Of a DNA stretch of 64,000 nucleotides, positions 12,557 through 51,352 are shown piece after piece (position 1 is the stretch's first letter; every line of letters begins with the position of its first letter). The stretch spans positions 138,369 to 202,368 of the forward strand of contig JAZKBV010000001.1 in the NCBI GenBank assembly GCA_040388415.1. Reading direction: 5' to 3'. The notes below the pieces were generated by a model, which saw only the letters and a program-made list of their open reading frames with translations, made no database searches and was not told the origin of the DNA. The stretch comes from Patescibacteria group bacterium. Its GTDB lineage: Bacteria > Patescibacteriota > Minisyncoccia > Phycocordibacterales > PALSA-1337. Position numbers and translations under genes: made by a program.

Positions 12557-13669
12557 ATGACCACACTCCTCATCATTCTCATTGTCTTAGCGGTTTTGAT
12601 AATTGTCTTTTTGGGAGTGCTGTTGTTGCGCCAGAAAAACGCCGCTTTCGGCGGGGCGAACAATCAACAAAATACTCAGCAAAACGAAGGGCTCAACCTC
12701 ATCCTCCAGCAGATCAATGAAATGTCGCGCACAGTTGATGCTAAGATGGGCGATCTCAGCAAAACGGTGGATGCCAAGATCAATGATGGCAATCGCTCGA
12801 TGCAAGAGTCTATGCGCGGACAGCTTTCGGAGTCGTCAAAACTCATCAAGGAAGTCACTCAGGGTTTGACCAAGCTCGATGAGACCAACCGTCAGGTGGT
12901 TTCTTTTGCCGACCAGTTACAGAGTCTTCAGGATATCCTCAAAAATCCAAAACAACGCGGTATCCTCGGCGAGTATTATCTGGAAACATTGCTCAAGAAC
13001 GTCTTGGCACCAGGGCAGTATCAGATGCAATATGCGTTCAAGAATGGCGAGATCGTAGATGCGGCTGTCTTCGTAAAAGATAAGGTCATTCCTATAGATT
13101 CGAAGTTTTCATTGGAAAATTACAATAAACTCGTTGAAGAAAAGAATCCGGCGGAAAAAGAAAAATTGGAAAAAGCTTTTGTGAATGATTTGAAATTACG
13201 CATCCAGGAAACAGCGAAGTATGTCCGCCCTTCTGAAAATACGATGGATTTTGCCTTTATGTTCATTCCTCACGAGGCTATCTACTATGATCTCTTGGTT
13301 AATAAGATTGGCGCAGCAGTTGGGGAGACTGACAATTTGATCCAGCGCGCAGCAAGCAAGTATAAGGTCATCATTGTATCGCCAACTTCTTTCTTGGCGT
13401 ATTTACAGACGGTGTTGCAGGGCCTCAAGGCTATGCAGATCGAAGAGACCGCAAAGGACATCGTCAAGCATGTCGAACAGCTCGGTACACATCTCAAAAA
13501 GTATGAGGAGTATCATACAAAGCTTGGTACATCACTTGGCACAGTTATCAATCATTACAATAACTCCGGCAAGGAGCTCAAGAAGGTAGACAAAGATATT
13601 ATGCGCATTGCAGGTGAGGCGCCAGGCATAGAAGTGGCTGTTTTGGAGGGGCCAGAAAGCGATGAGTGA
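12557..13669 (+). CDS. rmuC: DNA recombination protein RmuC
   Basis: N-terminal TM, central coiled coil, and a C-terminal RmuC domain 'FMFIPHEAIYYDLL'. Confidence 0.8.
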   Translation: MTTLLIILIVLAVLIIVFLGVLLLRQKNAAFGGANNQQNTQQNEGLNLILQQINEMSRTVDAKMGDLSKTVDAKINDGNRSMQESMRGQLSESSKLIKEVTQGLTKLDETNRQVVSFADQLQSLQDILKNPKQRGILGEYYLETLLKNVLAPGQYQMQYAFKNGEIVDAAVFVKDKVIPIDSKFSLENYNKLVEEKNPAEKEKLEKAFVNDLKLRIQETAKYVRPSENTMDFAFMFIPHEAIYYDLLVNKIGAAVGETDNLIQRAASKYKVIIVSPTSFLAYLQTVLQGLKAMQIEETAKDIVKHVEQLGTHLKKYEEYHTKLGTSLGTVINHYNNSGKELKKVDKDIMRIAGEAPGIEVAVLEGPESDE

Positions 13670-13709
13670 TGCTATTGAGTCACGAGTAGTAGGGTGTTAT
13701 CATAGTGTA

Positions 13710-16700
13710 ATGAAACGTAACTGCATGTATAGGTATCTATTTTTACTCATTACGTCACTCTCGATTGTTTTGCTCACCGGAAAAAATGCTTTTGCTGATG
13801 TTTTGTCACCAGGCACGATATACAGTTGTGGTGAAATAGCGAGTGCGGGCGTGTACACACTTAGTTCTACCAGTACATTTTCTGTAGCTCCCGGCAACGA
13901 TTGCATCAGAGTTACGTCAGGGGGAACAGTGGATGATACTGTTATTGATGGCAACGGGGCAACTATTACTGGTAATGTGAATGGTGATGGTGTAAACCCT
14001 GGTGATAGTGGTTTTAATTTTACGTTGGAGAATGCCACAGTCATTGGAACTACGAGTACAAGTGGAATTGATTTGGCAGATTGTAGTACCTATGGTGGTT
14101 TAGGTGGCATTGTAAAAATATTAAACTCCACAACCACTGCACTTGTCGCCAATGGTGGAAAAATTGAGACAGTGACGGCGTGTAGTCCAACACCAAGTCA
14201 GTATTATGGTGGAGATGGAGGTTTTTTTACTATCTCAACATCTACGTTCACGACAATAAGCACTGTCGGTGCTGATGGTGGAACAGGGGGGTATGGAGGA
14301 CGTATAGTTATTTTCAATTCAGACAGCTCTCTTGCAAGTAGCACAATCTCACTCGGGGGTGGACACGGGACTGATCTTTCGGTGGCTGGCTATCTTGAGG
14401 TTCACTATACTGTATTTGATTATGTGAATTACCTTTTTTCTGCGCTCAATTGGCTCTATCTATATGGTCCCGATAATCTTCCTGGTGAAATTTTCAATAA
14501 TACCCCATTCGCTGGAGGCTATCTCTACACTCCACCAGGTGACACCACTTGTTCGAGTAGTTTAATAACCGCAGGAATCTATACCCTCACCGGTGATGTA
14601 ACAGGAGATTGCACTATTGCTGGTAACGGCGTGATCCTCAATGGTCAGGGTCACACCATAAATGGGAATGTGCATGGTGACGGATCAGGTTTTGATACTT
14701 CAGGTTACACTTTTACTTTAGAAAATGTAACCGTCACAGGAACAACTTCGGCAACTCTTGGCGCTGGAAATATTACCGTCAACAACTCCACAACCTCTGT
14801 TATAACCGTGAATAATGAAGGAGATCGTTTTGCGGGAAATGTTGGGGAGATACATTTGATAAATTCAACTTCGACTTCACTGTATGCGAGTGCTTCCAGA
14901 TACGGAGCGACGTGTGGTCTCTGTACTGTGCAAAGCGGTCATGCGGGAGTTATTGATGTCACGAACTCGGTATTCACGCATATATATGCCGATAGTATTA
15001 TCGGTGCGAGCAGTACCGGGGGGACGATAACCATCACCGGCACAAATGTCGATGTTTCGAGTACGACTGTGTCAGCGACAGGTTTGGTAAATGGTATTCT
15101 GACTATCAATTATGCGACTTTGGTAAATGACAATTTTACCCTCTCTGCACTGAGCGATCTTATCCTTAATGGGCCGAGTAATTTACCAGGTGATCTGGGT
15201 TCATTTGGCGGCGGAGTGCTTTCTCTTGATAACACGATTTATAATGCATCACAATGTAGTAATCTCGGCATCTCACAGACGTATTTTCTAGCCAATAATA
15301 TTACGGGAAATTGTGTGATCAAGGCGAATAATGTGGTAATCGATGGTGCAGGGCAATGGACCGTCAATGGAAGCATTACTGGTGACGCTACAGTTGTAGG
15401 TAATAATGGTTATAATTTTACGTTACAAAATATTACCGTAACTGGACCAGTTACCTCAAATGGTTCTATCGTCTATCTTTCTCAAGTAAGTCAGACAGCT
15501 GGAGCGGGGGGTTCTATCACTATCGATCATGCCACGACGAGCGATATAACTTCGCTGGGTGCAGCTCCATGTGCTCATTTCAAGATTGGTAATCCGTGTG
15601 GTACTGGCGGTAATGTGATTGTGAGAGATTCTTATGTGGGAAATATTAATGTTGATGGTGGCAGTAGCCAGAGTTCTCAGCTTTCAGGACAGGGCGGAAC
15701 GATCGTTATTTCGACTTCAACCACAGCCTCGCTCAGTGCCAATGGTGGAAACGGTGATACGCAAGGTGGTAATGGGGGGTCTGTAACTGTTACAAATTCT
15801 CTCGAAAATATCGCTAGTAGTACAATAAGTGCTCGTGGAGGAAACTCTCTCCTATGTGGAAGTGGAGGAAATGGCGGTTCGATCAATTTATTGAATTCAA
15901 CATATACAGGTTCGATAATCAACACTGCCGGAAATGATGCTTCAGATTGTAGCTATTCATATTCCGGTTCATCAGGACATAGTGGGTCAATACAGGTGCT
16001 TGGCCAGTATAGCCAAGTTGTAAGCACGGTTGCTCCAACCGAACCAGCCCCCGCTCTCATACCAACACCTGTCGTAGTTCCAAAAACCCCAGCCGTGTCA
16101 GGTTCGAGCGGTTCATTCATCACACCACCTATCAGTGATTCAGTACCAGTTGAAACCATCCCAACATCACCAATACCTCCACGCACATTTGGATCAGTTG
16201 CTGCTCAAGCCATCCAACAAGTAACCAAAGTTGCAACCGCCGTCGCCAACTCTCCAGCCGCTAAAACAGTCCAAACCGTCGGCTTCTTCGGTGGCTTGGC
16301 AGCATCAGTCGCCTTCTACACTGATAGTGCCTTTGCGACACCAGTTGCCGCATCGGAAGTCCTCCTTATCCCGGTGCGCCTCTGGGGACTCCTCCTTGCA
16401 GGCTTAGGTATACGTAAGCGTTCACGTCCGTGGGGCACCGTCTATGACAGCGTGACCAAACAACCGATCGACCCTGCTTTTGTCACAGCACGTGATGCCT
16501 CAGGCAAGGTAGTGGCTGAATCATTCACTGATATCGATGGTAGATACGGCTTCCTCCTTCCTGACGGCGTATACTACATCTCTGCACAAAAGACGAACTA
16601 TGAATTCCCATCGAAGAAGATGGTGGGCAAGCAGAATGACGAGCTCTACAGTGATCTCTACTTTGGCGAGTCTGTCATCATTCACAGCGGTCAGGTCCTC

Positions 16701-17204
16701 GACAAGAATATCCCCATGGATCAAAAGAACTTCGACTGGAATGAATATGCCAAGAAGAAGCGTAATGCACTCTTGTTCCATTCAAAATATGAAAAGCCGT
16801 GGGCTGTCGTGAGTAACTATGTCTATGGCATCGGCCTTGCCATCTCCGTCATCGCGACTGTTATCCATCCCACAACCTACAATATTGTCATTCTCGTTTC
16901 GTATGCGGTAGTCCTCATCTCATTCAATTTCACCAGTCGAAAGAAAAAGCTGGGATCGATCATCGACAAGGAGACTCATGACCCGTTGTCCTATGCGATT
17001 TTCCGTGTGACTGGATCTGACCATCAAACTGTTCTTCGTTCAGGCGCCTGTGATGTCCTTGGCCGATTCTACTGTATCGTGCCAAAAGGCGAGTGTTATA
17101 TTGATATCGAGAAAAAGAACGTTGACGGCACCTATGTGAAAGTCTATGAATCAGCGCTACTCAACAACAAGACGGGCTTCATTAACAGCGATTTGGTGGT
17201 CTAG
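13710..17204 (+). CDS. giant surface protein with three ~230-aa tandem modules, Gly-rich and Pro/Thr-rich stalk, TM helices and two CarboxypepD_reg-like domains
   Basis: Signal peptide 'MYRYLFLLITSLSIVLLTGKNAFA'. Three repeated modules recognisable by '...NGQGHTINGNVHGDG...FTLENVTVTGTTS'. C-terminal TM segments. 'DASGKVVAESFTDIDGRYGF' and 'IFRVTGSDHQTVLRSGACDVLGRFY' are Ig-like carboxypeptidase-regulatory-type folds. Confidence 0.75.
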   Translation: MKRNCMYRYLFLLITSLSIVLLTGKNAFADVLSPGTIYSCGEIASAGVYTLSSTSTFSVAPGNDCIRVTSGGTVDDTVIDGNGATITGNVNGDGVNPGDSGFNFTLENATVIGTTSTSGIDLADCSTYGGLGGIVKILNSTTTALVANGGKIETVTACSPTPSQYYGGDGGFFTISTSTFTTISTVGADGGTGGYGGRIVIFNSDSSLASSTISLGGGHGTDLSVAGYLEVHYTVFDYVNYLFSALNWLYLYGPDNLPGEIFNNTPFAGGYLYTPPGDTTCSSSLITAGIYTLTGDVTGDCTIAGNGVILNGQGHTINGNVHGDGSGFDTSGYTFTLENVTVTGTTSATLGAGNITVNNSTTSVITVNNEGDRFAGNVGEIHLINSTSTSLYASASRYGATCGLCTVQSGHAGVIDVTNSVFTHIYADSIIGASSTGGTITITGTNVDVSSTTVSATGLVNGILTINYATLVNDNFTLSALSDLILNGPSNLPGDLGSFGGGVLSLDNTIYNASQCSNLGISQTYFLANNITGNCVIKANNVVIDGAGQWTVNGSITGDATVVGNNGYNFTLQNITVTGPVTSNGSIVYLSQVSQTAGAGGSITIDHATTSDITSLGAAPCAHFKIGNPCGTGGNVIVRDSYVGNINVDGGSSQSSQLSGQGGTIVISTSTTASLSANGGNGDTQGGNGGSVTVTNSLENIASSTISARGGNSLLCGSGGNGGSINLLNSTYTGSIINTAGNDASDCSYSYSGSSGHSGSIQVLGQYSQVVSTVAPTEPAPALIPTPVVVPKTPAVSGSSGSFITPPISDSVPVETIPTSPIPPRTFGSVAAQAIQQVTKVATAVANSPAAKTVQTVGFFGGLAASVAFYTDSAFATPVAASEVLLIPVRLWGLLLAGLGIRKRSRPWGTVYDSVTKQPIDPAFVTARDASGKVVAESFTDIDGRYGFLLPDGVYYISAQKTNYEFPSKKMVGKQNDELYSDLYFGESVIIHSGQVLDKNIPMDQKNFDWNEYAKKKRNALLFHSKYEKPWAVVSNYVYGIGLAISVIATVIHPTTYNIVILVSYAVVLISFNFTSRKKKLGSIIDKETHDPLSYAIFRVTGSDHQTVLRSGACDVLGRFYCIVPKGECYIDIEKKNVDGTYVKVYESALLNNKTGFINSDLVV

Positions 17205-18386: not shown

Positions 18387-19034
18387 CTATTTTCTATTGC
18401 TCAACGCATTCCTTATCGTCTCACTATCTGCATATTCGAGTTCAGCGCCTGTCGAAAGGCCACGACCAAGGATGGTCACTTTGGTTGATGAGAGCATTGA
18501 ATTGCTTGCGGTAACATTTTTGAGTGCATCTCTGACGATAGTCGCCGTGTGCTCGCCGTCAGGTGTCGTATTCAATGAAAGAATAATTTCCTTGATTACC
18601 TGCCTGCCGTCAGGCATGGTTGTTTCTTGGTTTTTGGTTATTCTTTCTAGTAACGTCTTTAATCTGATACGTTTTTCGGGTTCCTTATCGAGTATCGGCA
18701 CGGTACCACCAAGGATAAAATATAACCCCTTATAAGTTCCACTCTTTTCTATACTTTCAAAATCTGAGTCTCGAGCAACGATCATGAGGGTCGAGGCGTC
18801 GCGAGAAGGATCTGCACAGACTGAACAGACAACCTGCTTGGTCGAATTGATGAATAGGCGATGGCACTGCGGACATTCTGAGGTGGCTTTACGAACTTCT
18901 TCAATCAGCTTGATGAACTCAGCGATAGAGGCTGGGGATTTGCCGAGGAGGTAGTATACAAAACGTCGGGCCTGACGTGGGCCGATGCCAGGGAAATGGG
19001 CGAAGAGTTCTTCGAGGCGGTGTAAGCTGTCCAT
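18387..19034 (-). CDS. recR: recombination protein RecR
   Basis: 'MDSLHRLEELFAHFPGIGPRQARRFVYYLL' HhH, a C4 zinc finger 'CPQCHRL..CSVC', and a Toprim domain. The start was moved to the MDSL methionine. Confidence 0.9.
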   Translation of the reverse strand: MDSLHRLEELFAHFPGIGPRQARRFVYYLLGKSPASIAEFIKLIEEVRKATSECPQCHRLFINSTKQVVCSVCADPSRDASTLMIVARDSDFESIEKSGTYKGLYFILGGTVPILDKEPEKRIRLKTLLERITKNQETTMPDGRQVIKEIILSLNTTPDGEHTATIVRDALKNVTASNSMLSSTKVTILGRGLSTGAELEYADSETIRNALSNRK

Positions 19035-19100
19035 GGGTATATAGTAAACAGTAAACAGCAATTAGTAAACAGTTGAAAATTTGTATGCTATGATTTTACG

Positions 19101-19580
19101 ATGAACGACTACTATAAAAATCTCCCTAAAAAACGAATGGGCTCCGGCGCACTATTTTTTAATTCTGAGGGCAAGGTGCTCATCGTAAAACCAACCTACA
19201 AAGATTATTGGGAGATACCAGGAGGCGTAACCGAAAATGATGAATCACCTTGGAACACCTGTGTTCGAGAGGTTAAAGAAGAACTTGGCCTGAGTGTTTC
19301 TGGTACAAAACTACTTTCAATTGATTACATTTCAAATAGTGACGGCAAAGGCGAGCGTTTGATGTTTATCTTTGATGGCGGAGAGCTGTCAGATTCGGAT
19401 ATTAAAAATATTTCCTTACAAGAAAAAGAATTGAGCGAATATCGCTTTGTCACTTCAGAGGAAGCTGTTAGTTTGCTCGGTGATAAATTGAAGAGAAGAG
19501 TGGCGAATAGTATTCTGGTAAGAAAAGAAGATAAAGCTCTATATTTGGAGAATGGCGAACCGGCAGATTATTTTAAATAA
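19101..19580 (+). CDS. Nudix hydrolase
   Basis: Nudix box 'GGVTENDESPWNTCVREVKEELGL'. Confidence 0.85.
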   Translation: MNDYYKNLPKKRMGSGALFFNSEGKVLIVKPTYKDYWEIPGGVTENDESPWNTCVREVKEELGLSVSGTKLLSIDYISNSDGKGERLMFIFDGGELSDSDIKNISLQEKELSEYRFVTSEEAVSLLGDKLKRRVANSILVRKEDKALYLENGEPADYFK

Positions 19581-30884: not shown

Positions 30885-31106
30885 ATGAATTTTTTCATGA
30901 AAGCGCTGCTCAAGAAGCAGTTGAAAGGGGTGCCGGAAGCGGAGATCGAGAAGTTTGTGGCTATGGTTGAGCAGAATCCTGATTTCTTCAAGCAGATCGC
31001 CGAAGAGGCGCAGGTCAAGATCAAGGCTGGTATGGGTCAGCAAGAAGCGGTTATGGCGGTATTGCAGGATAAGCAGGAGGAGCTTGCGAAGGTTGTGGGG
31101 AAGTAG
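30885..31106 (+). CDS. hypothetical small helical protein (73 aa)
   Basis: ORF immediately downstream of zwf, followed by a strong terminator. Confidence 0.45.
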   Translation: MNFFMKALLKKQLKGVPEAEIEKFVAMVEQNPDFFKQIAEEAQVKIKAGMGQQEAVMAVLQDKQEELAKVVGK

Positions 31107-31118
31107 GGTAATAAAACA

Positions 31119-31148
31119 CCCGCGCTTCTTTCGAAGCGCGGGTTTGTT
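31119..31148. terminator. bidirectional intrinsic terminator
   Basis: 'CCCGCGCTTCtttcGAAGCGCGGGtttgtt', a perfect 10-bp stem. Confidence 0.8.
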
Positions 31149-31159
31149 GTTGACTGAAA

Positions 31160-31738
31160 TTACTTGGTGAACTTGGTATGGGGCAAGTCGTTGTATTGTT
31201 CACTGAAATCAACGTCCGGAATCGCCAGAACTTCGGCTTGAAATCCAGCGTAGTATGCTGATAAACGAGCTCGCTCAAAAACAGCTTGCACGTCGCATAC
31301 ATACCAGAGTGAATAATGTAGCGATTCTTGTGCTGAGACGTATCTCATGACCTCATCTGTGGTCCCTCGTGGCATCGCTTCGATCTTGACCTTTTCTTTC
31401 TGATAGTTGGCTATTTTTTCTTCAGCCCGTTTTTTCCGATAGAGAAGGGCCTCTACGATTTTGGGGCGAAGTTCGATTCTCGCTCCCAATTTGTCCGGCA
31501 TGCTGTATCCGTATAAAACACGGAAATCGTGATAGAAGGTGAATGTGCGGTAGCTGCTCCATATAAGTCCAGGGAGATTGCACGCAAAACCCAGGCAGAT
31601 AAGGATCAACACGAGGTTTCGTATGAATCCATTTTTGTATCTCAGTGCAATGAATGCTCCACAGACAATGAGTAAGAACATGGCTGCGCATGATAGCACC
31701 AGGAGCAGTTTGACCGTCTCGACAGTTTGAAGTTGCAT
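31160..31738 (-). CDS. hypothetical membrane protein (2 TM + cytoplasmic domain)
   Basis: 192-aa ORF with two N-terminal hydrophobic helices. Confidence 0.55.
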   Translation of the reverse strand: MQLQTVETVKLLLVLSCAAMFLLIVCGAFIALRYKNGFIRNLVLILICLGFACNLPGLIWSSYRTFTFYHDFRVLYGYSMPDKLGARIELRPKIVEALLYRKKRAEEKIANYQKEKVKIEAMPRGTTDEVMRYVSAQESLHYSLWYVCDVQAVFERARLSAYYAGFQAEVLAIPDVDFSEQYNDLPHTKFTK

Positions 31739-31960
31739 ATTCCTCCGTATGTATGTTGGTTAGACGTTGTTGTACAGACTCTGGCACCACACCAAAATCA
31801 GTTCTAGTATTTGTCCAACTATACGTATGTGTGCGTATCGTGTCAATAATGTCCTATAGTCAGTCTCTTTAAATGCGTAAATTGAGTTAAATTAAGTTAT
31901 TTTGACTAACTTCTACATTAGTGGTAACGTGTTTTTAGCTGTTCTACAAAAGGATTCCTT

Positions 31961-32800
31961 ATGTTCTATTATTCCTGCACCAGGCGAAATGGCATCGCCT
32001 ATCTGCTTTGGAGATGGCTTCTAAAAAACAACGGAGCTTTCCAAGCTGATCTCGATGCCTGGTATTTCGGTCCAAGTCGCGGCATGAATGACTACGAGTC
32101 GCTTGCCAAGAACTACAAAAAGTCCGACGTAAAGCCGGACAAGCAGTATTCGATACTGCCCACGGTCCTCGATATGGTCGGGGATTGCACGGGGAAGAGA
32201 ATTATCGACGTAGGCTGTGGCTCAGGTTTCTTTACTGTGCCGCTCGCCGAACAAGGTGCGTTACGCGTCTATGGAATTGATAACTCCGAAGCTCAGCTCA
32301 AACTGGCTTCAGAAGTATCTAATCGTCCAGCGGTTACGTATGCCTTGCGTGATATTTTTACTACCTCGATCGCTCCTCAGTTTGACGTCATTGTCGTTCC
32401 ATTCGTCGCCAACTACGCGCGCTCAACTCCGATCCTGCAGCATTTGTTTCAACGATTGCACGGTGGTTTGAGCGACGGAGGTAAAGTCGTGTTTGTCTTC
32501 GATCTGCCAAACGGCAAAAGCTTGCAGAAGTTTGGAGCGACCAAGATGTTTCTCGGTCCACGTGCTGATGAGACGCCAATCGAGATTAATCTGTTTAAGG
32601 AGAACAAGAATATCTGCACTCTCACATGCATGTATTACACTCCTGAAACAATCGAACGATTGCTCCGAACTGCCGGCTTTACGAATATCAATTGGCACAA
32701 GCCAATCGTCTCTCTGGAGGGAATATCTGCTATGGGTGCTGAATTCTGGGACGGCTACACAGACGATCCAGAGCTCGGCTACCTTACGGCGGAGAAGTAA
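31961..32800 (+). CDS. class I SAM-dependent methyltransferase
   Basis: Motif I 'IIDVGCGSGFFTVPLA' and post-I 'VYGIDNS'. The start may instead be an internal Met. Confidence 0.7.
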   Translation: MFYYSCTRRNGIAYLLWRWLLKNNGAFQADLDAWYFGPSRGMNDYESLAKNYKKSDVKPDKQYSILPTVLDMVGDCTGKRIIDVGCGSGFFTVPLAEQGALRVYGIDNSEAQLKLASEVSNRPAVTYALRDIFTTSIAPQFDVIVVPFVANYARSTPILQHLFQRLHGGLSDGGKVVFVFDLPNGKSLQKFGATKMFLGPRADETPIEINLFKENKNICTLTCMYYTPETIERLLRTAGFTNINWHKPIVSLEGISAMGAEFWDGYTDDPELGYLTAEK

Positions 32801-32876
32801 CTCTAGTTTGATTCACAATCGCAGCGCTTCGGTGCCGCGATTTTTTTATTGCAAATATTAGTGATATAGTAAATCA

Positions 32877-33407
32877 ATGATTGAATCAGAAAAAAATTTC
32901 ATAGCAAAACCAGAAAAGCCACCTGTCTTATTTCATGCAAGTAGAAGTCCAGACATTAAAGTTTTTGAGCCACGAGCGGAAAAAGTAAGAAATAGTAACG
33001 AAGGTCCAAAAGTGTTTGCTACTCCGAGTCGAGCAATGGCCAGTATTTTTCTAGTTGAAAATGATGATAGTTGGACACAGTCTGGAACAATAGAAGATGT
33101 TCCGTACATTGTTATTTCAGATAAAGAAAGATTCCTGAATCTGGATAAAGGCGGTCTCGTCTATTCTTTACCAAGTGATACTTTTGAAAATAATCCCGAA
33201 GAGGGTTTGGGTGATCTTGAATGGACGAGTGATAAGAAAGTCGTGCCAATTGGGCAGGAATTTGTTCCGTCTGCTCTGATTGATATGATTAAAAATGGAG
33301 TGAAAGTATATTTTGTGAATGAATCACAGTTCCATGAAATTCAAAATGCTTCTGATCAAGGCAGATCAATTATTGATAGTCTTACGCCAGAGCAATTCGC
33401 TTCCTAA
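32877..33407 (+). CDS. hypothetical protein (AT-rich)
   Basis: 176 aa. No family recognised. Confidence 0.45.
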   Translation: MIESEKNFIAKPEKPPVLFHASRSPDIKVFEPRAEKVRNSNEGPKVFATPSRAMASIFLVENDDSWTQSGTIEDVPYIVISDKERFLNLDKGGLVYSLPSDTFENNPEEGLGDLEWTSDKKVVPIGQEFVPSALIDMIKNGVKVYFVNESQFHEIQNASDQGRSIIDSLTPEQFAS

Positions 33408-33437
33408 AATCCCTCAAGTAAGCTATATTTCTATTCT

Positions 33438-34915: not shown

Positions 34916-34944
34916 TTGACATTGGTAACAAATTGTGGTAGTAT
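34916..34944 (+). promoter_or_regulatory. sigma70-like promoter TTGACA-N17-TAGTAT
   Basis: 'TTGACAttggtaacaaattgtggTAGTAT', upstream of the 48-codon ORF and leuS. Confidence 0.4.
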
Positions 34945-34973: not shown

Positions 34974-35120
34974 ATGAAAAGACTATTCGATCATGCCGAA
35001 GTTCAGGAACTCCTTGTATATGAGACCAAAAAATTTAGTTGGGCTCACTGGACTATGCTCTTCCCAATCCTCGGACCCATCGTCATCATTGTTTACTATA
35101 TGTTGACTGGTCCAAAGTAA
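34974..35120 (+). CDS. putative 48-aa leader/micro-membrane protein upstream of leuS
   Basis: MKRLFDHAEVQELLVYETKKFSWAHWTMLFPILGPIVIIVYYMLTGPK. A hairpin terminator follows. Confidence 0.3.
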   Translation: MKRLFDHAEVQELLVYETKKFSWAHWTMLFPILGPIVIIVYYMLTGPK

Positions 35121-35132
35121 GTGTCTTTCACC

Positions 35133-35165
35133 AAGCCGTCTCTACCAAGAGACGGCTTTTTTTAT
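35133..35165 (+). terminator. intrinsic terminator/attenuator 15 nt upstream of leuS start
   Basis: 'AAGCCGTCTCTaccaAGAGACGGCTTttttttat'. Confidence 0.7.
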
Positions 35166-35180
35166 ACAGACTTTTGAGCT

Positions 35181-38100
35181 ATGATTATCCCCATGAATAA
35201 AGACGCGAAATACGATCCGGCCAAGATAGAAAAGAAATGGCAGAAGAAGTGGACCAAGGATAAGCTCTATCAGTCAAAAGAAGACCCAAAGAAAGAAAAA
35301 TTCTTTGTGCTCGACATGTTTCCATATCCGTCTGGTGAAGGACTGCACGTCGGCCACCCAAAGGGTTATATCGCCACCGATATCATCTCTCGTTTTCAGC
35401 GCATGCACGGCAAGTCTGTCTTGCACCCGATGGGCTTTGATGCCTTCGGTTTGCCTGCTGAGAACTATGCCATCAAGATGAAAAAGAATCCGATGGATTT
35501 GACTGAGGTGAATGTGAATAGGTTTAAAGAACAATTAGAGATCATTGGTCTTGACTATGATTGGTCACGTGAGGTCAATACAACTGATCCTGCATATTAC
35601 ACGTGGACGCAGTGGATCTTTTTGCAGTTGTATAAAAAAGGTTTGGCATACGAATCATTTGAGCCGATCAACTGGTGTCCTGTCGACAAGACCGGTTTGG
35701 CAAACGAGGATGTCGTCGATGGTCGTTGTGAACGTTGTGGAACGCTCGTGGAGAAGAGGCCGATGCGCCAGTGGGTCCTCAAGATTACTGATTATGCAGA
35801 TCGATTGTTGCAGGACTTGGATATGGTACGTGCGCCAGTGTTTACCAACACTGTTGGTTCAGATGCATTTCGTAAAGATATGCCAGTGAGCGAGCGTCAC
35901 GTTGTTCACTGTCTCATCAAGCATTGGAGCGAAGACAAATATTTGTGCATGAAGTGGAAGAAAAATGATTGGCGTGGTTTTGTCATCGGTGGTATCGAAG
36001 ATGGTGAGTCTGCCGAGACGACTGCTATCCGCGAAGTGATGGAAGAGACTGGGTATAAAAATGTTGTTTTCAAGAAAATCGTCGGCACGATGACTGCAGA
36101 GTTCTATCAGCAGATCAAAAAGGAAAATCGCCGTGCGTTCATTACAACTGTATATCTTGAACTTCAGAATGGCGAGCAAAGTGACGTGCCTCAACATGAA
36201 AAAGATATTCAAGATATGGAATGGGTGCCTGCTGCTCAGGTCCGTGATTTTGTGAACAGAGATGATCTCAAATATGAATGGGATGTCTTTACGGGTGCAG
36301 TAAAGCAGGCCCCGTTATTGGATTGGCCCGCATCTATCAAAGAAGCTCAGCGAAATTGGATCGGCAAATCAGAGGGTGCAGAAATAGAATTTACATTGAA
36401 GTTGGCAAATAATAAGCCTCGCTTTGTGCTGATTCATGGATATAAAGAAAGTCCACAAGAGGGATATCTCCCTTGGCTCAAAAAAGAACTCGAGAAGCGT
36501 GGTCATGAAGTGCAGGTTCCTGAATTGCCAAATCCTGCGAATCCAAAAGAGTCTGAGCAAGTAGACTATGTCATCAATAACTGCACTATCGATGAGAATA
36601 CGGTCATCGTTGCACATAGTCTCGGCGGTGTAGTTGCTCAAAAAGTTATTATGAAATTGAACAAGCAGATTTCAGGACTTGTTCTCGTTGGCAACGCAAT
36701 CACCCCAGGTTTTTCAAAAGATACAAAGTCGCGTCCATTCCACAAAAACTTCACCTGGGATTTTGACTATGCGCGCATCAACAAGCTCGCACAAGGAAGA
36801 GTCGCAGTTCTCTCTGATACAAAAGAGATTCATCGCAGTGCTTTTTTGAAAGATCTAGCGACAAAATTGTCAGCAGCTTTCATTGAAGTAGATGCAGTCA
36901 AAGAGCACTTCAATGGTTCAGAGGAGCCTGCAGTTTTGAAGTGTGTCACGCCGACAGTCAGTGTGTTCACCACACGTCCCGATACGATCTTTGGTGTTAC
37001 GTACATCGTCCTTGCTCCTGAACATCCATGGGTAAGTGAATTATTGCCACAGTTGGAGAATGGATCAGAAGTCGAAGCATACGTTGCGCAAGCTAAGCTT
37101 GCCACCGAGATCGAGCGCACTGATGCAAAGAAGGAAAAGACTGGTGTTGAGCTCAAGGGTATCAAGGCAACCAATCCAGCCAATGGCGAAGAAGTACCCG
37201 TATGGATCGCTGACTATGTTCTCGCAGACTACGGTACTGGCGTTGTCATGGCTGTGCCTGCGCATGATGAAAGAGACTTTGCTTTTGCAAAGAAGTTTGG
37301 GTTGGGAGTGAAGCAAGTTGTTGCTCCGCTTATTACTCGTACAGGCGATGAAGATGCATGGAGAGCACATGAACCAGAAGCTAAAAGACCGACTGTTGTG
37401 TGTATTGTTAAACATTGGTCAGATGATAAGTATCTTTTTATAAAGAAAAAAATTCTTGATAAAGCGGTTGTTGCGATTGCTGGCGGTATCGACGGGGAGG
37501 ACACTGTTCAGGCGGGTCAACGTGAGATTCGTGAAGAATCTGGGTATCTCAATACAAAGTTTGTGAGAGATTTGGGCACCCCCGTTTATTATCGATTTTA
37601 TTCAATTACCGGCAAACAGAATCGCATCTCTGAATTGAGGCCGCTTTATTTTGAATTGGTTGATGGTGAAAGAGAAGAGATGTCGGAAAATGAGAAGCAA
37701 CAGCATGAAGAACTATGGCTTTCAAAAGAGGAAATTGATCAATATCTGAAAGGAAGACTATTCAATCCTATTTTTTGGAATCGTCTCAATAATTCTCAGG
37801 AGGCATTTACTGAAGCTGGTATTGTCATCAATTCAGGAAAATTTGACGGTAAAGCATCTGATTCAGTCAAAAAAGACATCACCCTCTCAGTCGGCGGACA
37901 ATGGGTTTCAAAATATAAACTGCGCGACTGGGTTTTCTCACGCCAGCGCTATTGGGGAGAACCAATACCGCTCATTCATTGTAAGAAGTGCGGGGTAGTT
38001 GCTGTACCTGAAAAAGATCTGCCGGTGAAGCTACCAAAGGTGAAGTCATATGAGCCAACAGGCACGGGCGAATCTCCGCTCGCTGATATCCATAAATGGG

Positions 38101-39095
38101 TCAATGTGAAATGTCCAAAGTGTAAGTCGCCTGCAAAGCGCGAGACGAACACTATGCCTCAGTGGGCAGGTTCATCATGGTACTACCTCCGTTACATGGA
38201 TCCAAAGAACAAGAATACTCTCGTCGATCCAAAGAAAGAAAAATATTGGGCACCAGTTGACATGTATGTCGGCGGTGCAGAGCATGCCACTCGCCATCTC
38301 ATCTATGCACGCTTCTGGCATAAGTTCTTGTATGACATCGGCACGGTCTCTACCACTGAGCCATTCATCAAGCTCCAGCATGTCGGTCTCATCATGGGTG
38401 AAGATGGTCGCAAGATGTCCAAGCGCTTTGGTAACGTCGTCAATCCCGATGATATCGTCAAAGCATATGGTGCCGATACGCTCCGTCTCTATGAGATGTT
38501 CATGGGTCCTTTTGATCAGCAGATAGCATGGAGCACATCGAGCATGGTTGGTCCAAGGAGATTTATCGAGAAGGTGTGGCGCCTCAGAGAAAAAGTTATT
38601 GATTTGAAAATGAAGAGTGCAAGTTCGTCACCAGAAGCTGATCGCGTTCTCCATAAAACGATAAAAAAAGTGACGGTAGATATCAATGCGCTTTCATTCA
38701 ACACCGCAGTAAGCACGCTCATGATCTCCGTCAACGAACTTGAGAAAGCCACGTCGCTCACTCGTGACCAATTCGAGATTTTACTGAAATTGCTTGCACC
38801 GTTTGCGCCTCATGTCGCTGAAGAGCTCTGGTATTCAGTTGGCAACAAAACATCAGTTCATATATCTAGTTGGCCTGTCTATAATGAAGCGTTGGTAGTT
38901 GATTCAGAAGTACAGATCATCGTTCAAGTAAATGGTAAAGTGCGTGCATCCTTCAAGGCTGAAACGGGCTCAACTGAAGCTCAATTGGAGGCACATGCAA
39001 AAGAAATCCCTGAAGTAAAAAAGTGGATTGAAGGGAAGGGGATAAAGAAAGTTATCGTGGTAAAAGGAAAGCTCGTCAGCATCGTGGTCGCCTAA
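35181..39095 (+). CDS. leuS: leucine--tRNA ligase with three inserted domains (2x Nudix, 1x Ser-hydrolase)
   Basis: HIGH 'PYPSGEGLHVGHP', ZN-1 'GRCERCGT', CP1 'VFTTRPDT' ... 'GTGVVMAVPAHDERDF', 'KLRDWVFSRQRYWGEPIP', and KMSKS 'KMSKRFGN'. Insert 1 (aa ~215-378) carries a Nudix box 'GGIEDGESAETTAIREVMEETGY'. Insert 2 (aa ~405-590) reads 'FVLIHGY...LPWLKKEL...VIVAHSLGGVVA...VLSDTKE', the RBBP9/YdeN Ser-hydrolase pattern. Insert 3 (aa ~725-870) carries a Nudix box 'GGIDGEDTVQAGQREIREESGY'. Confidence 0.9.
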   Translation: MIIPMNKDAKYDPAKIEKKWQKKWTKDKLYQSKEDPKKEKFFVLDMFPYPSGEGLHVGHPKGYIATDIISRFQRMHGKSVLHPMGFDAFGLPAENYAIKMKKNPMDLTEVNVNRFKEQLEIIGLDYDWSREVNTTDPAYYTWTQWIFLQLYKKGLAYESFEPINWCPVDKTGLANEDVVDGRCERCGTLVEKRPMRQWVLKITDYADRLLQDLDMVRAPVFTNTVGSDAFRKDMPVSERHVVHCLIKHWSEDKYLCMKWKKNDWRGFVIGGIEDGESAETTAIREVMEETGYKNVVFKKIVGTMTAEFYQQIKKENRRAFITTVYLELQNGEQSDVPQHEKDIQDMEWVPAAQVRDFVNRDDLKYEWDVFTGAVKQAPLLDWPASIKEAQRNWIGKSEGAEIEFTLKLANNKPRFVLIHGYKESPQEGYLPWLKKELEKRGHEVQVPELPNPANPKESEQVDYVINNCTIDENTVIVAHSLGGVVAQKVIMKLNKQISGLVLVGNAITPGFSKDTKSRPFHKNFTWDFDYARINKLAQGRVAVLSDTKEIHRSAFLKDLATKLSAAFIEVDAVKEHFNGSEEPAVLKCVTPTVSVFTTRPDTIFGVTYIVLAPEHPWVSELLPQLENGSEVEAYVAQAKLATEIERTDAKKEKTGVELKGIKATNPANGEEVPVWIADYVLADYGTGVVMAVPAHDERDFAFAKKFGLGVKQVVAPLITRTGDEDAWRAHEPEAKRPTVVCIVKHWSDDKYLFIKKKILDKAVVAIAGGIDGEDTVQAGQREIREESGYLNTKFVRDLGTPVYYRFYSITGKQNRISELRPLYFELVDGEREEMSENEKQQHEELWLSKEEIDQYLKGRLFNPIFWNRLNNSQEAFTEAGIVINSGKFDGKASDSVKKDITLSVGGQWVSKYKLRDWVFSRQRYWGEPIPLIHCKKCGVVAVPEKDLPVKLPKVKSYEPTGTGESPLADIHKWVNVKCPKCKSPAKRETNTMPQWAGSSWYYLRYMDPKNKNTLVDPKKEKYWAPVDMYVGGAEHATRHLIYARFWHKFLYDIGTVSTTEPFIKLQHVGLIMGEDGRKMSKRFGNVVNPDDIVKAYGADTLRLYEMFMGPFDQQIAWSTSSMVGPRRFIEKVWRLREKVIDLKMKSASSSPEADRVLHKTIKKVTVDINALSFNTAVSTLMISVNELEKATSLTRDQFEILLKLLAPFAPHVAEELWYSVGNKTSVHISSWPVYNEALVVDSEVQIIVQVNGKVRASFKAETGSTEAQLEAHAKEIPEVKKWIEGKGIKKVIVVKGKLVSIVVA

Positions 39096-49318: not shown

Positions 49319-49435
49319 AGGGAATCCTTTCAGTTGTTCAAAATAAATATAGATTACTTTTTATATTTTGTCAAACTTCATTTTTTGAGTGAAAATCATT
49401 TTGAAAAAACGGCATATTTTGCTACACTTGCACAC

Positions 49436-51352
49436 ATGCAAAAGAGTTTAACCTCATCAGAAATTCGCTCGCGATTCCTCGCTTTCTTTGAAAAGCGCGG
49501 ACATACTATCATCCCATCCGCATCTCTTGTGACGAGTGATGAGAAAGGCGTGACCAATCCGACCCTCTTCAACACAGCAGGTATGCAACCGCTCATACCG
49601 TATCTCTTGGGTGAGCCGTATATGAAAGACGGCAAGACAGTCATTCGACTTGTTGATGCCCAAAAATGCGTACGCACCGTCGACATCGACGATATTGGCG
49701 ACAAAACACATGCGACATTTTTTGAAATGCTCGGTAACTGGTCTCTCGGTGATTATTTTAAGAAAGAAGCGATTGAGTGGAGCTTTGAATTTTTGACGAA
49801 CCCTATCGATGCTCCTATTGGTGATCAAGGTCTCGGTCTTGATCCGAATCGACTTTATGTATCAGTTTTTGAAGGAGATGCTGTGGCGCCACGCGATGAA
49901 GAAGCTGCAAATATTTGGCGCGATATTTTCAAGAAAAATAGAATCGATGGTGGTGGCGATACGTCTGCTGGTGAAGCGGGTCGTATATTTTATTTACCCG
50001 CCAAAAACAACTGGTGGGAAGCAGGTGAGAATGGTCCCTGTGGTCCAGATACAGAGATGTTCTATGACGTTGAGAATAAATTTAGTGGCAAACTTTTGAC
50101 TCATGTTGAATATGTCGCTGCGGATGATGTCCGCGATGTTCTCGAAGTGTGGAATGACGTTTTCATGCAGTATGAGAAGAAAGATGGAAAGATTATCGGC
50201 AAATTGCCAAAGCCTTCTGTTGATACTGGTGCTGGCCTCGAGCGTCTCACAATGACATTACAGGGAGTCGACAATATCTATGATACGGATCTATTGAAAC
50301 CAGTGATGGATAAGATACAAGAGCTTTCGAAGAATTGGGAAATTAAATCAGCGCGAATTGTGGCTGATCATATCAAGGCGGCAGTTCACCTAATTGCGGA
50401 TGGGGTTGTTCCATCAAATACAGATAGAGGATATGTTCTGCGCAAGCTTATTCGTAGAGCGGTCAGGCATTCAGATATTTTGAAGATGAACGGAAACTTG
50501 ATTGAGATTGCTCAATTGATTCAAGTGCAGTATTCAGAGATATATATAAATACTATTAGTACCGACAGTGGTTTGAATATACAGAATGTCATTCAAGCTG
50601 AAGTCGGTAAATTTAACGAAACCCTCAAGCATGGCCTCAAAGAGTTTGAGAAAATAGCCGTGAAAGATATTTCAGCTCACGATGCCTTTTCATTGTTTTC
50701 AAGCTACGGTTTTCCGATCGAGCTTACAGTTGAATTAGCGAAAGAAAAGGGGATTAAAGTTGATACGGAAGGATTTGAAATTGAATTCAAAAAACACCAA
50801 GACCTCTCACGCTCCGGCGCAGAACAGAAATTCAAAGGAGGTCTCGCTGATGCGAATGACCCTATGGTGCTCCGCTATCACACCGCGACGCACTTGCTTC
50901 ATCAAGCTCTTCACGATGTTCTCGGCGAAGGCACGGGCGACCAGAAAGGTTCAAATATCACTGCTGAGCGCCTCCGCTTCGACTTTACTGGCGTAAAGCT
51001 CACTGATGAGCAGAAAAAGAAGGTAGAAGATATCGTCAATGAAAAGATCGTCGCTAAACTACCGATGAGCCAGATCATCATGCCAAAAGCAGAAGCTGAA
51101 CAGACAGGTGCGCGCCATTTTTTCAGCGAAAAGTATGGTGATGAGATCTCTATCTATTTTATCGGTCCAATCGCAGGTTCAACACCAACAAAAACTGATC
51201 TCGCCAATGCGTACTCAAAAGAATTTTGTGGCGGCCCGCATGTGACAAATACTGCTGAGCTCGCAGGTCCAGAAGGTAAGTGGAAGTTCAAAATACAAAA
51301 AGAAGAAGCAAGCTCGCAAGGTGTACGACGTATCAAGGCAGTACTCGCATAG
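49436..51352 (+). CDS. alaS: alanine--tRNA ligase, short form lacking C-Ala domain
   Basis: 'FNTAGMQPL', 'FFEMLGNWSLGDYFK', editing-domain 'HTATHLLHQALHDVLG', and 'CGGPHV'. The start was moved to MQKSLTSSEIR. The protein ends about 40 aa after the editing zinc site. Confidence 0.9.
   Translation: MQKSLTSSEIRSRFLAFFEKRGHTIIPSASLVTSDEKGVTNPTLFNTAGMQPLIPYLLGEPYMKDGKTVIRLVDAQKCVRTVDIDDIGDKTHATFFEMLGNWSLGDYFKKEAIEWSFEFLTNPIDAPIGDQGLGLDPNRLYVSVFEGDAVAPRDEEAANIWRDIFKKNRIDGGGDTSAGEAGRIFYLPAKNNWWEAGENGPCGPDTEMFYDVENKFSGKLLTHVEYVAADDVRDVLEVWNDVFMQYEKKDGKIIGKLPKPSVDTGAGLERLTMTLQGVDNIYDTDLLKPVMDKIQELSKNWEIKSARIVADHIKAAVHLIADGVVPSNTDRGYVLRKLIRRAVRHSDILKMNGNLIEIAQLIQVQYSEIYINTISTDSGLNIQNVIQAEVGKFNETLKHGLKEFEKIAVKDISAHDAFSLFSSYGFPIELTVELAKEKGIKVDTEGFEIEFKKHQDLSRSGAEQKFKGGLADANDPMVLRYHTATHLLHQALHDVLGEGTGDQKGSNITAERLRFDFTGVKLTDEQKKKVEDIVNEKIVAKLPMSQIIMPKAEAEQTGARHFFSEKYGDEISIYFIGPIAGSTPTKTDLANAYSKEFCGGPHVTNTAELAGPEGKWKFKIQKEEASSQGVRRIKAVLA

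Follow-up and report, generated by a model that had tools for sequence, protein, structure and literature searches.

The 64,000-nucleotide stretch of DNA analyzed here (the window) comes from a Patescibacteria group bacterium (GenBank assembly GCA_040388415.1, contig JAZKBV010000001.1, positions 138,369 to 202,368) and encodes a leucyl-tRNA synthetase (LeuRS) into which three hydrolase domains have been inserted. Two of these are Nudix modules, called A and B below, and the third is a serine hydrolase of the YdeN/RBBP9 type. We found that the Nudix cassettes are gained, lost, and exchanged between otherwise near-identical LeuRS enzymes. The architecture itself is common in Patescibacteria and not unique to the window genome. 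Aminoacyl-tRNA synthetases (aaRS) with accreted domains were already known, and the swapping of cassettes is the most surprising element of this system.

An intact synthetase core interrupted by three hydrolase domains

Judged by its sequence, the gene is the organism's LeuRS, with a compact bacterial-type core and with putative synthetic and CP1 editing sites that are both intact. The NCBIfam model leuS_bact (TIGR00396) matched its product at 987.8 bits against a cut-off of 548.4, the match being split into four pieces. In the open reading frame (ORF) at 35181-39095, Pfam recognized tRNA-synt_1, tRNA-synt_1_2 (the CP1 editing domain PF13603, at 190 bits), Anticodon_1 (amino acids (aa) 1156-1263), NUDIX, and Ser_hydrolase, all above their gathering scores. 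An earlier note on this DNA, made by reading the sequence without database searches, had listed the LeuRS landmarks; a motif search placed every one of them where that note had put it, with KMSKS reading as KMSKR (Table 1). Across the family the motifs of the synthetic and editing sites vary little or not at all, and among 110 homologs there was no substitution at H56, G58, H59, K1078, M1079, and K1081 or at the CP1 residues D696, R698, and D699. The portion after the last insert, aa 873-1304, comprises the end of CP1, the second catalytic half, the anticodon-binding domain, and the C-terminal domain. A protein identical to the ORF product is held by NCBI (P0001), on a 208-kb contig of a Patescibacteria group bacterium metagenome-assembled genome (MAG).

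Alignment to the Thermus thermophilus LeuRS structure 1H3N was broken at exactly three points: query residues 214/380, 406/593, and 714/873, corresponding to T. thermophilus residues 208/210, 236/243, and 362/374. The inserts at these points measure 165, 186, and 158 aa, and the boundaries proposed in the earlier note fall within about 10 residues of the breaks. That note had also put the protein at about 490 aa beyond a typical bacterial LeuRS. The three blocks stand, at 509 aa in total, but the core is only ~795 aa because the leucine-specific domain (T. thermophilus residues of about 580-637) has no counterpart in the alignment to 1H3N. An AlphaFold2 (AF2) model of aa 1-1160, built with 110 homologs, reached a mean predicted local distance difference test (pLDDT) score of 89.1 and a predicted template modeling score of 0.78, and pLDDT was about 90-95 in all three inserts. 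Foldseek returned bacterial LeuRS structures as the top matches of the scaffold. The LeuRS segment LDWPASIKEAQRNWIGKSEGAEIEFTL carries the first strand into CP1 (aa 396-408 in the model), and the site-2 hydrolase is inserted in the first beta-hairpin of CP1.

The identification of the inserts as two Nudix modules and one YdeN/RBBP9-type module was borne out by Pfam scores above threshold, with NUDIX at 83 bits in two stretches (cut-off 21) and Ser_hydrolase (PF06821) at 42.2 bits over aa 416-578 (cut-off 22). Both Nudix modules have an alpha/beta/alpha sandwich fold and an intact E-x7-REx2EE core. In the second of the two Nudix boxes read in the earlier note, the E-x7-REx2EE-xGY core is complete, but one residue is missing between Gly and Glu (GX4E); tyrosines follow this box at +14, +15, and +18. 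The two modules are paralogous, as had been proposed (35% identity, E 4e-28). Recent internal duplication was rejected as their origin, given this low identity and given that the nearest neighbor of every module is in another protein, where it usually occupies the same site.

The site-2 module matched Bacillus subtilis YdeN (1UXO) at E 1.2e-18 and human RBBP9 at E 5e-7. Its candidate triad of Ser480, Asp546, and His576 is at least 95% conserved at each position in 56 orthologous hydrolase modules; the Asp and His were placed by family position, as the 1UXO alignment stops just short of the His. Conservation of catalytic residues, the lack of which the earlier note had named as a refutation, was thereby found across many orthologs for both the Nudix core and the Ser/Asp/His set. 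Sequence and structure prediction together suggest that the three inserts are autonomous, apparently catalytically competent hydrolase domains in CP1 and its hinge.

We considered whether this architecture could be an artefact, arising through chimeric assembly, through a frameshift that fuses separate genes, or through inteins that are spliced out of the mature protein. The window does derive from a MAG, and to that extent a chimera is conceivable. However, the gene is a single open frame, AF2 gives one confident model, and the modules recur at unchanged residue positions in over 100 independent assemblies of Patescibacteria that come from different sources. Pfam detected no Hint or intein family at E ≤ 1, and HN[CST] occurs nowhere in the protein. 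Direct or inverted repeats do not flank the cassettes, and a search for terminal inverted repeats or target-site duplications turned up only short repeats at chance level, none of them at the cassette borders. We regard an artefact of any of these kinds as practically negligible, in agreement with the earlier view of the blocks as in-frame domain insertions. Self-mobile DNA insertion was rejected on the lack of border repeats and on the content of the modules, which by Pfam encode nothing but hydrolase domains.

Recurrence of the cassettes at fixed sites in Patescibacteria

The 120 best homologs are LeuRS of 946-1564 aa from NCBI, JGI, ENA, and Logan assemblies. NUDIX and/or Ser_hydrolase was present in all 120, and HAD_2 in some, so the comparison with Candidate Phyla Radiation (CPR) orthologs that the earlier note had called for found the same inserts to be common in Patescibacteria. 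Mapping of insert lengths in the homologs showed that they are quantized at fixed sites. Site 1 may hold one Nudix (~165-188 aa) or two (~330-370 aa), site 2 the hydrolase (~181-190 aa), and site 3 a Nudix (~155-174 aa), and each of the three may also be empty. A fourth site, at query residues 960-1000 between the two CxxC motifs, usually measures 39 aa and sometimes 113-251 aa. Its cargo is a HAD_2 phosphatase-like domain in L038, P0015, P0021, P0022, P0033, P0064, and P0094, and a serine hydrolase in P0068 and P0097.

Seven of the eight possible on/off combinations of the first three sites occurred among the 120 best homologs, and the all-empty state was seen only in GTDB loci. We scanned GTDB species representatives and examined the best 80 of 594 confirmed matches, among which ~67 LeuRS had at least one module and ~13 (785-835 aa) had none; like the homolog set, this sample is biased toward relatives of the query and speaks to recurrence, not prevalence. 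Host labels among these 80 were Paceibacterota, Taylorbacteria, Moranbacteria, Nomurabacteria, Uhrbacteria, Peribacteria, Saccharibacteria, and Minisyncoccia. Overall, LeuRS relatives hold zero to five modules at four sites on or around CP1. The 1722-aa LeuRS at L038:5932-11097 (Candidatus Taylorbacteria palsa_1337) combines three Nudix modules with the hydrolase and HAD_2.

Retention of the E-x7-REx2EE core differed by position across 182 Nudix modules. It was kept in 87 of 90 modules at site 3, in 40 of 52 single modules at site 1, and in 19 of 20 modules at site 1a, the first of a tandem pair. At site 1b just 3 of 20 retained it, the Arg and a Glu being typically replaced. In these tandem pairs the second box is usually degenerate, with Arg to Ala and Glu to Gln changes (P0004, P0005, P0015, P0020, P0022, P0025, P0034, P0037, and others). 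The site-1b module is probably a non-catalytic pseudo-enzyme.

Three groups of relatives stood apart. In P0054 and P0102, the FTTRPDT motif of CP1 is replaced by (F/Y)NSVPQ(S/T)Y, and therefore editing may be lost in these two enzymes; neither has a Ser-hydrolase module. L039, L047, L049, L052, and L057 are MAGs labeled Clostridia, Clostridium, Bacilli, or Candidatus Fimivivens, with a LeuRS of ~950-980 aa and one Nudix cassette; four of them, from animal guts (GC 27-34%), form a clade of their own that is 52-57% identical to the CPR enzymes. Either these labels are wrong or the design extends beyond Patescibacteria. In L030, L062, and L082 the tblastn match spans 4-5.7 kb and the LeuRS ORF under genetic code 11 covers the last 2.8 kb only, which could reflect a gene split in two, an additional insert of unusual size, or an interrupted gene.

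Exchange of Nudix cassettes between near-identical enzymes

The closest relative of the window LeuRS, P0002 from a Candidatus Paceibacterota MAG, is 90-100% identical to it over the LeuRS core (93%) and the hydrolase module. Nonetheless, it holds 9 aa at site 1 in place of 165 aa and so has no Nudix there, and the site-3 Nudix of P0002/L091 is just 24-48% identical (about 41%) to module B, with a sharp drop and recovery of identity at the borders. The contig of P0002 is syntenic with the window over 26 kb at a DNA identity of 74-85%. Along leuS, DNA identity between the window and P0002/L091 runs from 82.6% through a gap at cassette 1 to 82.5%, disappears at 37305-37805 (cassette 3), and resumes at 85%.

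This pattern held across the family. Over all pairs among 110 homologs, cassette identity did not track core identity at either Nudix site (r = 0.04 for site 1, r = 0.01 for site 3), and the hydrolase reached r = 0.31. Where core identity was at least 90% (17 pairs), site-3 identity fell below 50% in 82% of pairs and exceeded 90% in a few; the hydrolase modules of such pairs were 76-89% identical. Modules were present or absent among LeuRS whose cores are 92-95% identical. The modules fall into 36 types at 50% identity, most of them site-specific and a few shared between sites. Vertical inheritance with simple loss was rejected for the Nudix cassettes, whose identity is uncorrelated with that of the core, but it still roughly fits the hydrolase module. 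We infer that the simplest mechanism of exchange would be homologous recombination through the conserved LeuRS flanks.

A narrow Nudix subfamily associated with synthetase genes

An exhaustive phmmer search with module B against 1.84 billion representatives (E ≤ 1e-3) matched 242 clusters, and we consider the subfamily narrow because there were only this many. From the best 150 of the 242 clusters we fetched 149 new proteins, 104 of which showed similarity to the LeuRS core. The remainder included free-standing proteins of ~154-190 aa with the same N-terminal 'preface', on contigs of up to 200 kb, which are therefore real genes. The preface is a conserved strand (…F.T..G.DA.R.D.P..ER…) at the N-terminus of the subfamily, and the C-terminal helix contains an invariant Trp.

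The same Nudix is also found inside class II prolyl-tRNA synthetase (ProRS), between the anticodon-binding and C-terminal domains. These archaeal-type proteins of 641-674 aa (P0224, P0275-P0278, and L089:2762-4693) form a small clade, and in the Nudix-bearing ProRS that was scanned, Pfam found only tRNA-synt_2b, HGTP_anticodon, NUDIX, and ProRS-C_1. The nearest named relatives are ProRS of Nanoarchaeota/Woesearchaeota (DPANN), and the insert was present in only 5 of the 120 top relatives. A further member of the subfamily is embedded in P0242 (1318 aa, ENA metagenome), an M17 leucyl-aminopeptidase-family protein with the order GNAT-Nudix-GNAT. In these organisms, proteins other than synthetases thus seem to host nested enzyme cassettes as well.

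We then examined the neighborhoods of eight free-standing members, picked regardless of context. P0135 and P0169 lie directly upstream of leuS, with the synteny of P0135 matching that of the window, and P0270 lies directly upstream of thrS-miaA. P0146 belongs to a cluster with the order metS, TatD, Nudix, HD, Nudix, leuS, the LeuRS of which has no insert, and P0181 is one gene upstream of a Nudix-bearing proS. Direct adjacency to an aaRS gene in three of eight has a binomial tail of ~0.007 if 5% is expected by chance, a rate that we estimated ourselves from ~21 aaRS genes in ~800 genes. L069, which likewise has a Nudix copy directly upstream of leuS, was found via its LeuRS and was excluded from this count. 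Repeated fusion and gene neighborhood thus support a functional link between this Nudix subfamily and aaRS, as read from gene content and order.

Candidate substrates and competing explanations

Characterized relatives give some direction as to what the Nudix modules may hydrolyze. The best characterized match in single-sequence searches was the Aquifex diadenosine tetraphosphate (Ap4A) hydrolase 3I7U (E 9e-7). A profile of 26 members matched the lupin Ap4A hydrolase 1F3Y (E 1.7e-8), followed by the decapping effectors AvrM14 and the uncharacterized 2AZW, an Enterococcus faecalis protein of unknown function that is also the nearest structure to the Nudix module. NCBIfam RppH models matched 22-23 of the 26 members, all far under their cut-offs, and the relatives include the RNA-end-directed Nudix enzymes RppH, AvrM14, and DCP2. 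Modules at site 1 and site 3 alike conserve an aromatic residue (Tyr/Phe) at +17/+18 from the box, the position at which the signature Tyr of diadenosine polyphosphate (ApnA) hydrolases is reported to lie (~16-18 residues past the box; Dunn et al. 1999). These lines agree, but similarity separates Nudix families poorly, and for that reason no single line decides the matter.

We tentatively favor, with slightly less than even confidence, an explanation in which the modules are accessory, exchangeable hydrolases coupled to aminoacylation, the Nudix modules acting on Ap4A-type by-products and the serine hydrolase on an amino-acid ester. Our confidence in any single substrate is lower than in the package as a whole. 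The modules would act beside LeuRS on side-products of aminoacylation. Ap4A, Ap4N, and related compounds arise when an enzyme-bound aminoacyl-adenylate reacts with ATP or another NTP. Dinucleoside polyphosphates of this kind would be the most likely Nudix substrate, and their hydrolysis would give ATP and AMP back to a cell unable to make nucleotides de novo; RppH-like action on a phosphorylated RNA or tRNA end would be a close second. The serine hydrolase, which sits on the domain that already binds the tRNA CCA end, would most likely cleave an alpha-amino-acid ester such as aminoacyl-tRNA, N-acyl-aminoacyl-tRNA, or an aminoacyl-nucleoside. The modules would not be needed for leucylation itself, and an enzyme could therefore lose or duplicate them or acquire others in their place by recombination across the conserved flanks.

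Two published reports bear on these assignments. Synthetases are the main cellular source of Ap4A, which Nudix enzymes split to ATP and AMP (PMC13627108). RBBP9 was reported to activate valacyclovir, an L-valyl ester, by hydrolysis (Shenoy et al. 2020, cited in PMC7730578), and this report, in the form in which it is cited there, was the only functional hint for the hydrolase family.

Several observations weigh against coupling to aminoacylation by-products. The strongest Ap4A producers are LysRS and PheRS, and LeuRS is not known to be among them. The scores of the Nudix modules against curated NCBIfam equivalogs were at most about 33 bits, with cut-offs of 116-259. Not every module can be catalytic, because most site-1b copies have lost the box Arg and Glu. 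No aaRS gene was found near P0217, P0239, and P0236, three of the eight free-standing members. The embedding of the same Nudix with GNAT in an M17 aminopeptidase fits a general habit of carrying passenger domains, and the allelic diversity (36 types, no correlation with the core) is not obviously predicted for a housekeeping by-product hydrolase.

The main rival holds that the modules are ordinary housekeeping enzymes lodged in permissive surface loops of CP1, working independently of LeuRS and unconnected to aminoacylation; fusion to an essential, constitutive gene would guarantee their expression in the streamlined genomes of Patescibacteria. It draws on the switching of modules on and off among cores that are 92-95% identical, on the sharing of sites by several unrelated hydrolase families, on the hydrolase at the fourth site in P0068 and P0097, and on the GNAT-flanked Nudix of the aminopeptidase, the three members without a synthetase neighbor, and the degenerate site-1b copies just mentioned. 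Nonetheless, the subfamily is narrow and most of the members found lie inside LeuRS (among the best 150 of 242 clusters). It became associated with aaRS genes in at least five independent ways (LeuRS site 1, LeuRS site 3, upstream of leuS, upstream of thrS, and the ProRS insert), and adjacency to aaRS genes is well above our chance estimate. Moreover, all of the insertion sites cluster on the single LeuRS domain that handles the tRNA 3' end. We consider independence from aminoacylation unlikely, though it deserves to be taken seriously.

The earlier note had leaned toward extra proofreading in cis, with the Nudix modules destroying misactivated aminoacyl-adenylates and the esterase deacylating mischarged tRNALeu as a supplement to CP1. 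The modules do lie in and beside the editing domain, the host or neighboring synthetases LeuRS, ThrRS, and MetRS are known to edit, and the cited RBBP9 report concerns hydrolysis of an amino-acid ester prodrug. Against this stands the chemistry: Nudix enzymes cleave nucleoside-diphosphate-X compounds, whereas aminoacyl-AMP is an acyl-phosphate of a monophosphate, and no Nudix is known to hydrolyze it. The CP1 editing motifs are fully intact and invariant, so that no shortfall in fidelity is evident. In close relatives the modules can be dispensed with, and among cores that are over 90% identical they are interchangeable. The same Nudix also occurs in the M17 aminopeptidase and in archaeal-type ProRS, the latter being of the ProRS-C_1 type, which is not known to have a cis-editing domain. 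In P0054 and P0102, with their degenerate Thr-rich motif, the hydrolase is absent, which means that the esterase does not make up for a lost CP1 function. We judge supplementary proofreading very unlikely, and action on misactivated aminoacyl-AMP is chemically unlikely for a Nudix, although the esterase may act on an aminoacyl ester. The alternative raised in the same note, hydrolysis of an ApnA side product, fits better and agrees with the nearest characterized relatives, but the modules score below the curated cut-offs.

A different explanation starts from the turnover of the cassettes and supposes that they shield the LeuRS-tRNA system from toxins or antibiotics or mend the harm done by these, with an arms race driving their replacement. 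The Nudix modules, together with HAD in some enzymes, would clear the CCA end of pyrophosphate or nucleotide adducts or break down aaRS inhibitors of the nucleotide type, and the serine hydrolase would remove N-acyl-aminoacyl groups installed by GNAT toxins. The near-zero correlation of Nudix cassettes with the core (r of about 0.01-0.04), the low site-3 identity in 82% of pairs with near-identical cores, the clean replacement with sharp borders between syntenic genomes, and the 36 cassette types are all in its favor, as are the placement of every site on the CCA-binding CP1 domain and the RNA-end-directed enzymes among the relatives. However, a PADLOC scan returned only a weak generic Nudix match, no defence genes were noticed adjoining leuS, and frequent recombination combined with weak constraint on accessory domains could explain the same diversity. 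On balance, conflict or repair as the main role seems distinctly improbable. A more elaborate proposal makes the CP1 modules a variable 'service station' that biological conflict has shaped and that tends both the tRNA acceptor end and the aminoacylation site, with alleles shuffled between LeuRS backbones by recombination as in defence loci. This is a long shot, but if true it would be the first hypervariable, immunity-like locus in an essential translation enzyme, shared in principle by CPR and DPANN.

Coordinates and other features of the window

Table 1. Features of leuS and its product in the window (positions in nucleotides from the first letter of the window; residues numbered along the 1304-aa protein; Tth, T. 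thermophilus LeuRS).
Feature	Position	Strand	Remarks
leuS, LeuRS with three nested hydrolase modules	35181..39095	+	uninterrupted ORF of 1304 aa; coordinates include the stop codon
LeuRS N-terminal catalytic half, aa 1-214	35181..35822	+	aligned to Tth residues 3-208
HIGH motif HVGH, aa 56-59	35346-35357	+	motif search
ZN-1 Cys cluster	35676-35741	+	motif search
Site-1 cassette, Nudix module A, aa 215-379	35823..36317	+	
Nudix box A GGIEDGESAETTAIREVMEETGY, aa 270-292	35988-36056	+	exact GX5EX7REUXEEXGU match; Tyr at +17
LeuRS segment LDWPASIKEAQRNWIGKSEGAEIEFTL, aa 380-406, linker and first strand into CP1	36318..36398	+	aligned to Tth 210-236
Site-2 cassette, YdeN/RBBP9-type alpha/beta Ser hydrolase, aa 407-592	36399..36956	+	PF06821
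Candidate triad Ser480 (AHSLGG)	36609-36629	+	
Candidate triad Asp546 (VLSD)	within 36801-36827	+	
Candidate triad His576 (EHF)	within 36897-36917	+	
CP1 editing-domain core, aa 593-714	36957..37322	+	PF13603; aligned to Tth 243-362
Thr-rich motif FTTRPDT, aa 596-602	36966-36986	+	motif search
VPAHDERD, aa 692-699	37254-37277	+	motif search
Site-3 cassette, Nudix module B, aa 715-872, nested in CP1	37323..37796	+	second Pfam NUDIX stretch
Nudix box B GGIDGEDTVQAGQREIREESGY, aa 768-789	37482-37547	+	E-x7-REIREESGY core
LeuRS C-terminal part, aa 873-1304	37797..39092	+	aligned to Tth 374-579 and 638-876
RDWVFSRQRYWG, aa 915-926	37923-37958	+	motif search
CxxC pairs of second catalytic half	37980-37994 and 38112-38129	+	
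KMSKR, aa 1078-1082	38412-38426	+	motif search

Immediately upstream of leuS, a 48-aa ORF at 34975-35121 (MKRLFDHAEVQELLVYETKKFSWAHWTMLFPILGPIVIIVYYMLTGPK) probably encodes a small membrane protein. It is preceded by a good sigma-70-like promoter at 34916-34944 and followed by a strong terminator-like hairpin at 35133-35158 (11-bp stem and T-run) that ends 22 nt before the leuS ATG. Rfam gave no match to a T-box or other known leader upstream of leuS. Just upstream of ychF-leuS, a small island of ~2.3 kb (31106-33435) is absent from the otherwise syntenic L091 and is strain- or species-specific. Its ORFs lie at 31160-31738 (-), 31961-32800 (+), and 32877-33407 (+), the last with a weak DUF6886 match.

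The window holds one more Nudix gene, at 19101-19580 (+), which encodes a stand-alone protein of 159 aa (Pfam, 66 bits). It is near dnaB, between recR (18387-19061, -) and an uncharacterized ORF, and by BLASTP it had no significant similarity to module A or B, placing it outside the LeuRS-cassette subfamily. The alanyl-tRNA synthetase at 49334-51352 is just 672 aa long and stops right after the tRNA_SAD domain, and an 1180-aa ORF at 13662-17204 has no Pfam match.

Meaning for synthetase biology and annotation

A full-text literature search, with subscription-only papers outside its scope, found no published description of a LeuRS with Nudix or YdeN inserts, and the earlier note's remark that it knew of none still stands for the texts searched. 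The proteins themselves are already public, with Pfam labels assigned automatically by the databases. Domain insertions were surveyed in a 2026 paper, which recorded the LeuRS editing domain CP1 as insertion-only, with zero host events (PMC13114784). CP1, itself an insertion, acts as host here, and this is therefore a nested insertion.

These results show that an essential, highly conserved translation enzyme can scaffold up to five extra enzymes and that an editing domain regarded as insertion-only can host nested domains of its own. It is unusual in evolution for cassettes to be swapped within a gene that otherwise keeps over 90% of its core, and this pattern calls for a population-genetic explanation. 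The occurrence of one Nudix subfamily beside or in LeuRS, ThrRS, MetRS, and ProRS of CPR and DPANN-like organisms offers a testable lead on Ap4A-type by-products or tRNA-end damage in ultra-small symbionts. There are also practical consequences. PGAP named P0001, P0002, and P0066 'class I tRNA ligase family protein' or 'alpha/beta fold hydrolase', and LeuRS can therefore be scored as missing in metabolic reconstructions of CPR bacteria. Similarly, marker-gene alignments of LeuRS will contain non-homologous blocks.

Comparison with known systems

The window enzyme has the fold and catalytic landmarks of canonical bacterial LeuRS (T. thermophilus 1H3N, Escherichia coli 4AQ7, and Neisseria gonorrhoeae 6Q89). 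It differs from them in its extra residues, which make up three folded enzyme domains, and in having no leucine-specific domain. The site-2 module resembles YdeN and RBBP9 (PF06821) in its alpha/beta-hydrolase type, its small size (~185 aa), its GxSxG nucleophile, and the family placement of its Asp and His, but it sits in the beta-hairpin of the LeuRS editing domain and is not free-standing. The natural substrate of the YdeN/RBBP9 family is poorly defined. The cassette Nudix modules have in common with the ApnA-hydrolase/RppH clade (1F3Y, 3I7U, T. thermophilus Ndx1 1VC8, Mycobacterium tuberculosis Rv2985 9CXX, and E. coli RppH) the Nudix fold, the box, and the aromatic residue at +17-18, and among characterized enzymes this clade gave their best matches by sequence, profile, and structure. 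In contrast to that clade, they are only 15-23% identical to its members and under all curated cut-offs, they have their own preface strand and invariant-Trp C-terminal helix, and they are embedded in aaRS genes or encoded beside them.

Like inteins and mobile insertions in essential genes, the cassettes are discrete inserts, here of ~160-190 aa, in a highly conserved housekeeping protein, with a patchy occurrence among close relatives. Unlike inteins and mobile insertions, the window inserts have no Hint domain, splice-junction residues, homing endonuclease, or terminal repeats; they are ordinary enzymes that are predicted to stay in the mature protein. The free-standing trans-editing factors AlaX, YbaK, and DTD are homologous to aaRS editing domains, which the cassette modules are not known to be. 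Among synthetases with an embedded or appended enzyme domain is isoleucyl-tRNA synthetase (IleRS) with a GNAT domain (NCBIfam NF040702, 'ileS_w_GNAT'), a class Ia aaRS with an accreted catalytic domain that is already recognized by NCBI curators; this model matched the window LeuRS through its IleRS part. Relative to that enzyme, the window LeuRS is distinguished by different domain families, multiple modules, nesting within CP1, combinatorial presence and absence, and the swapping of alleles.

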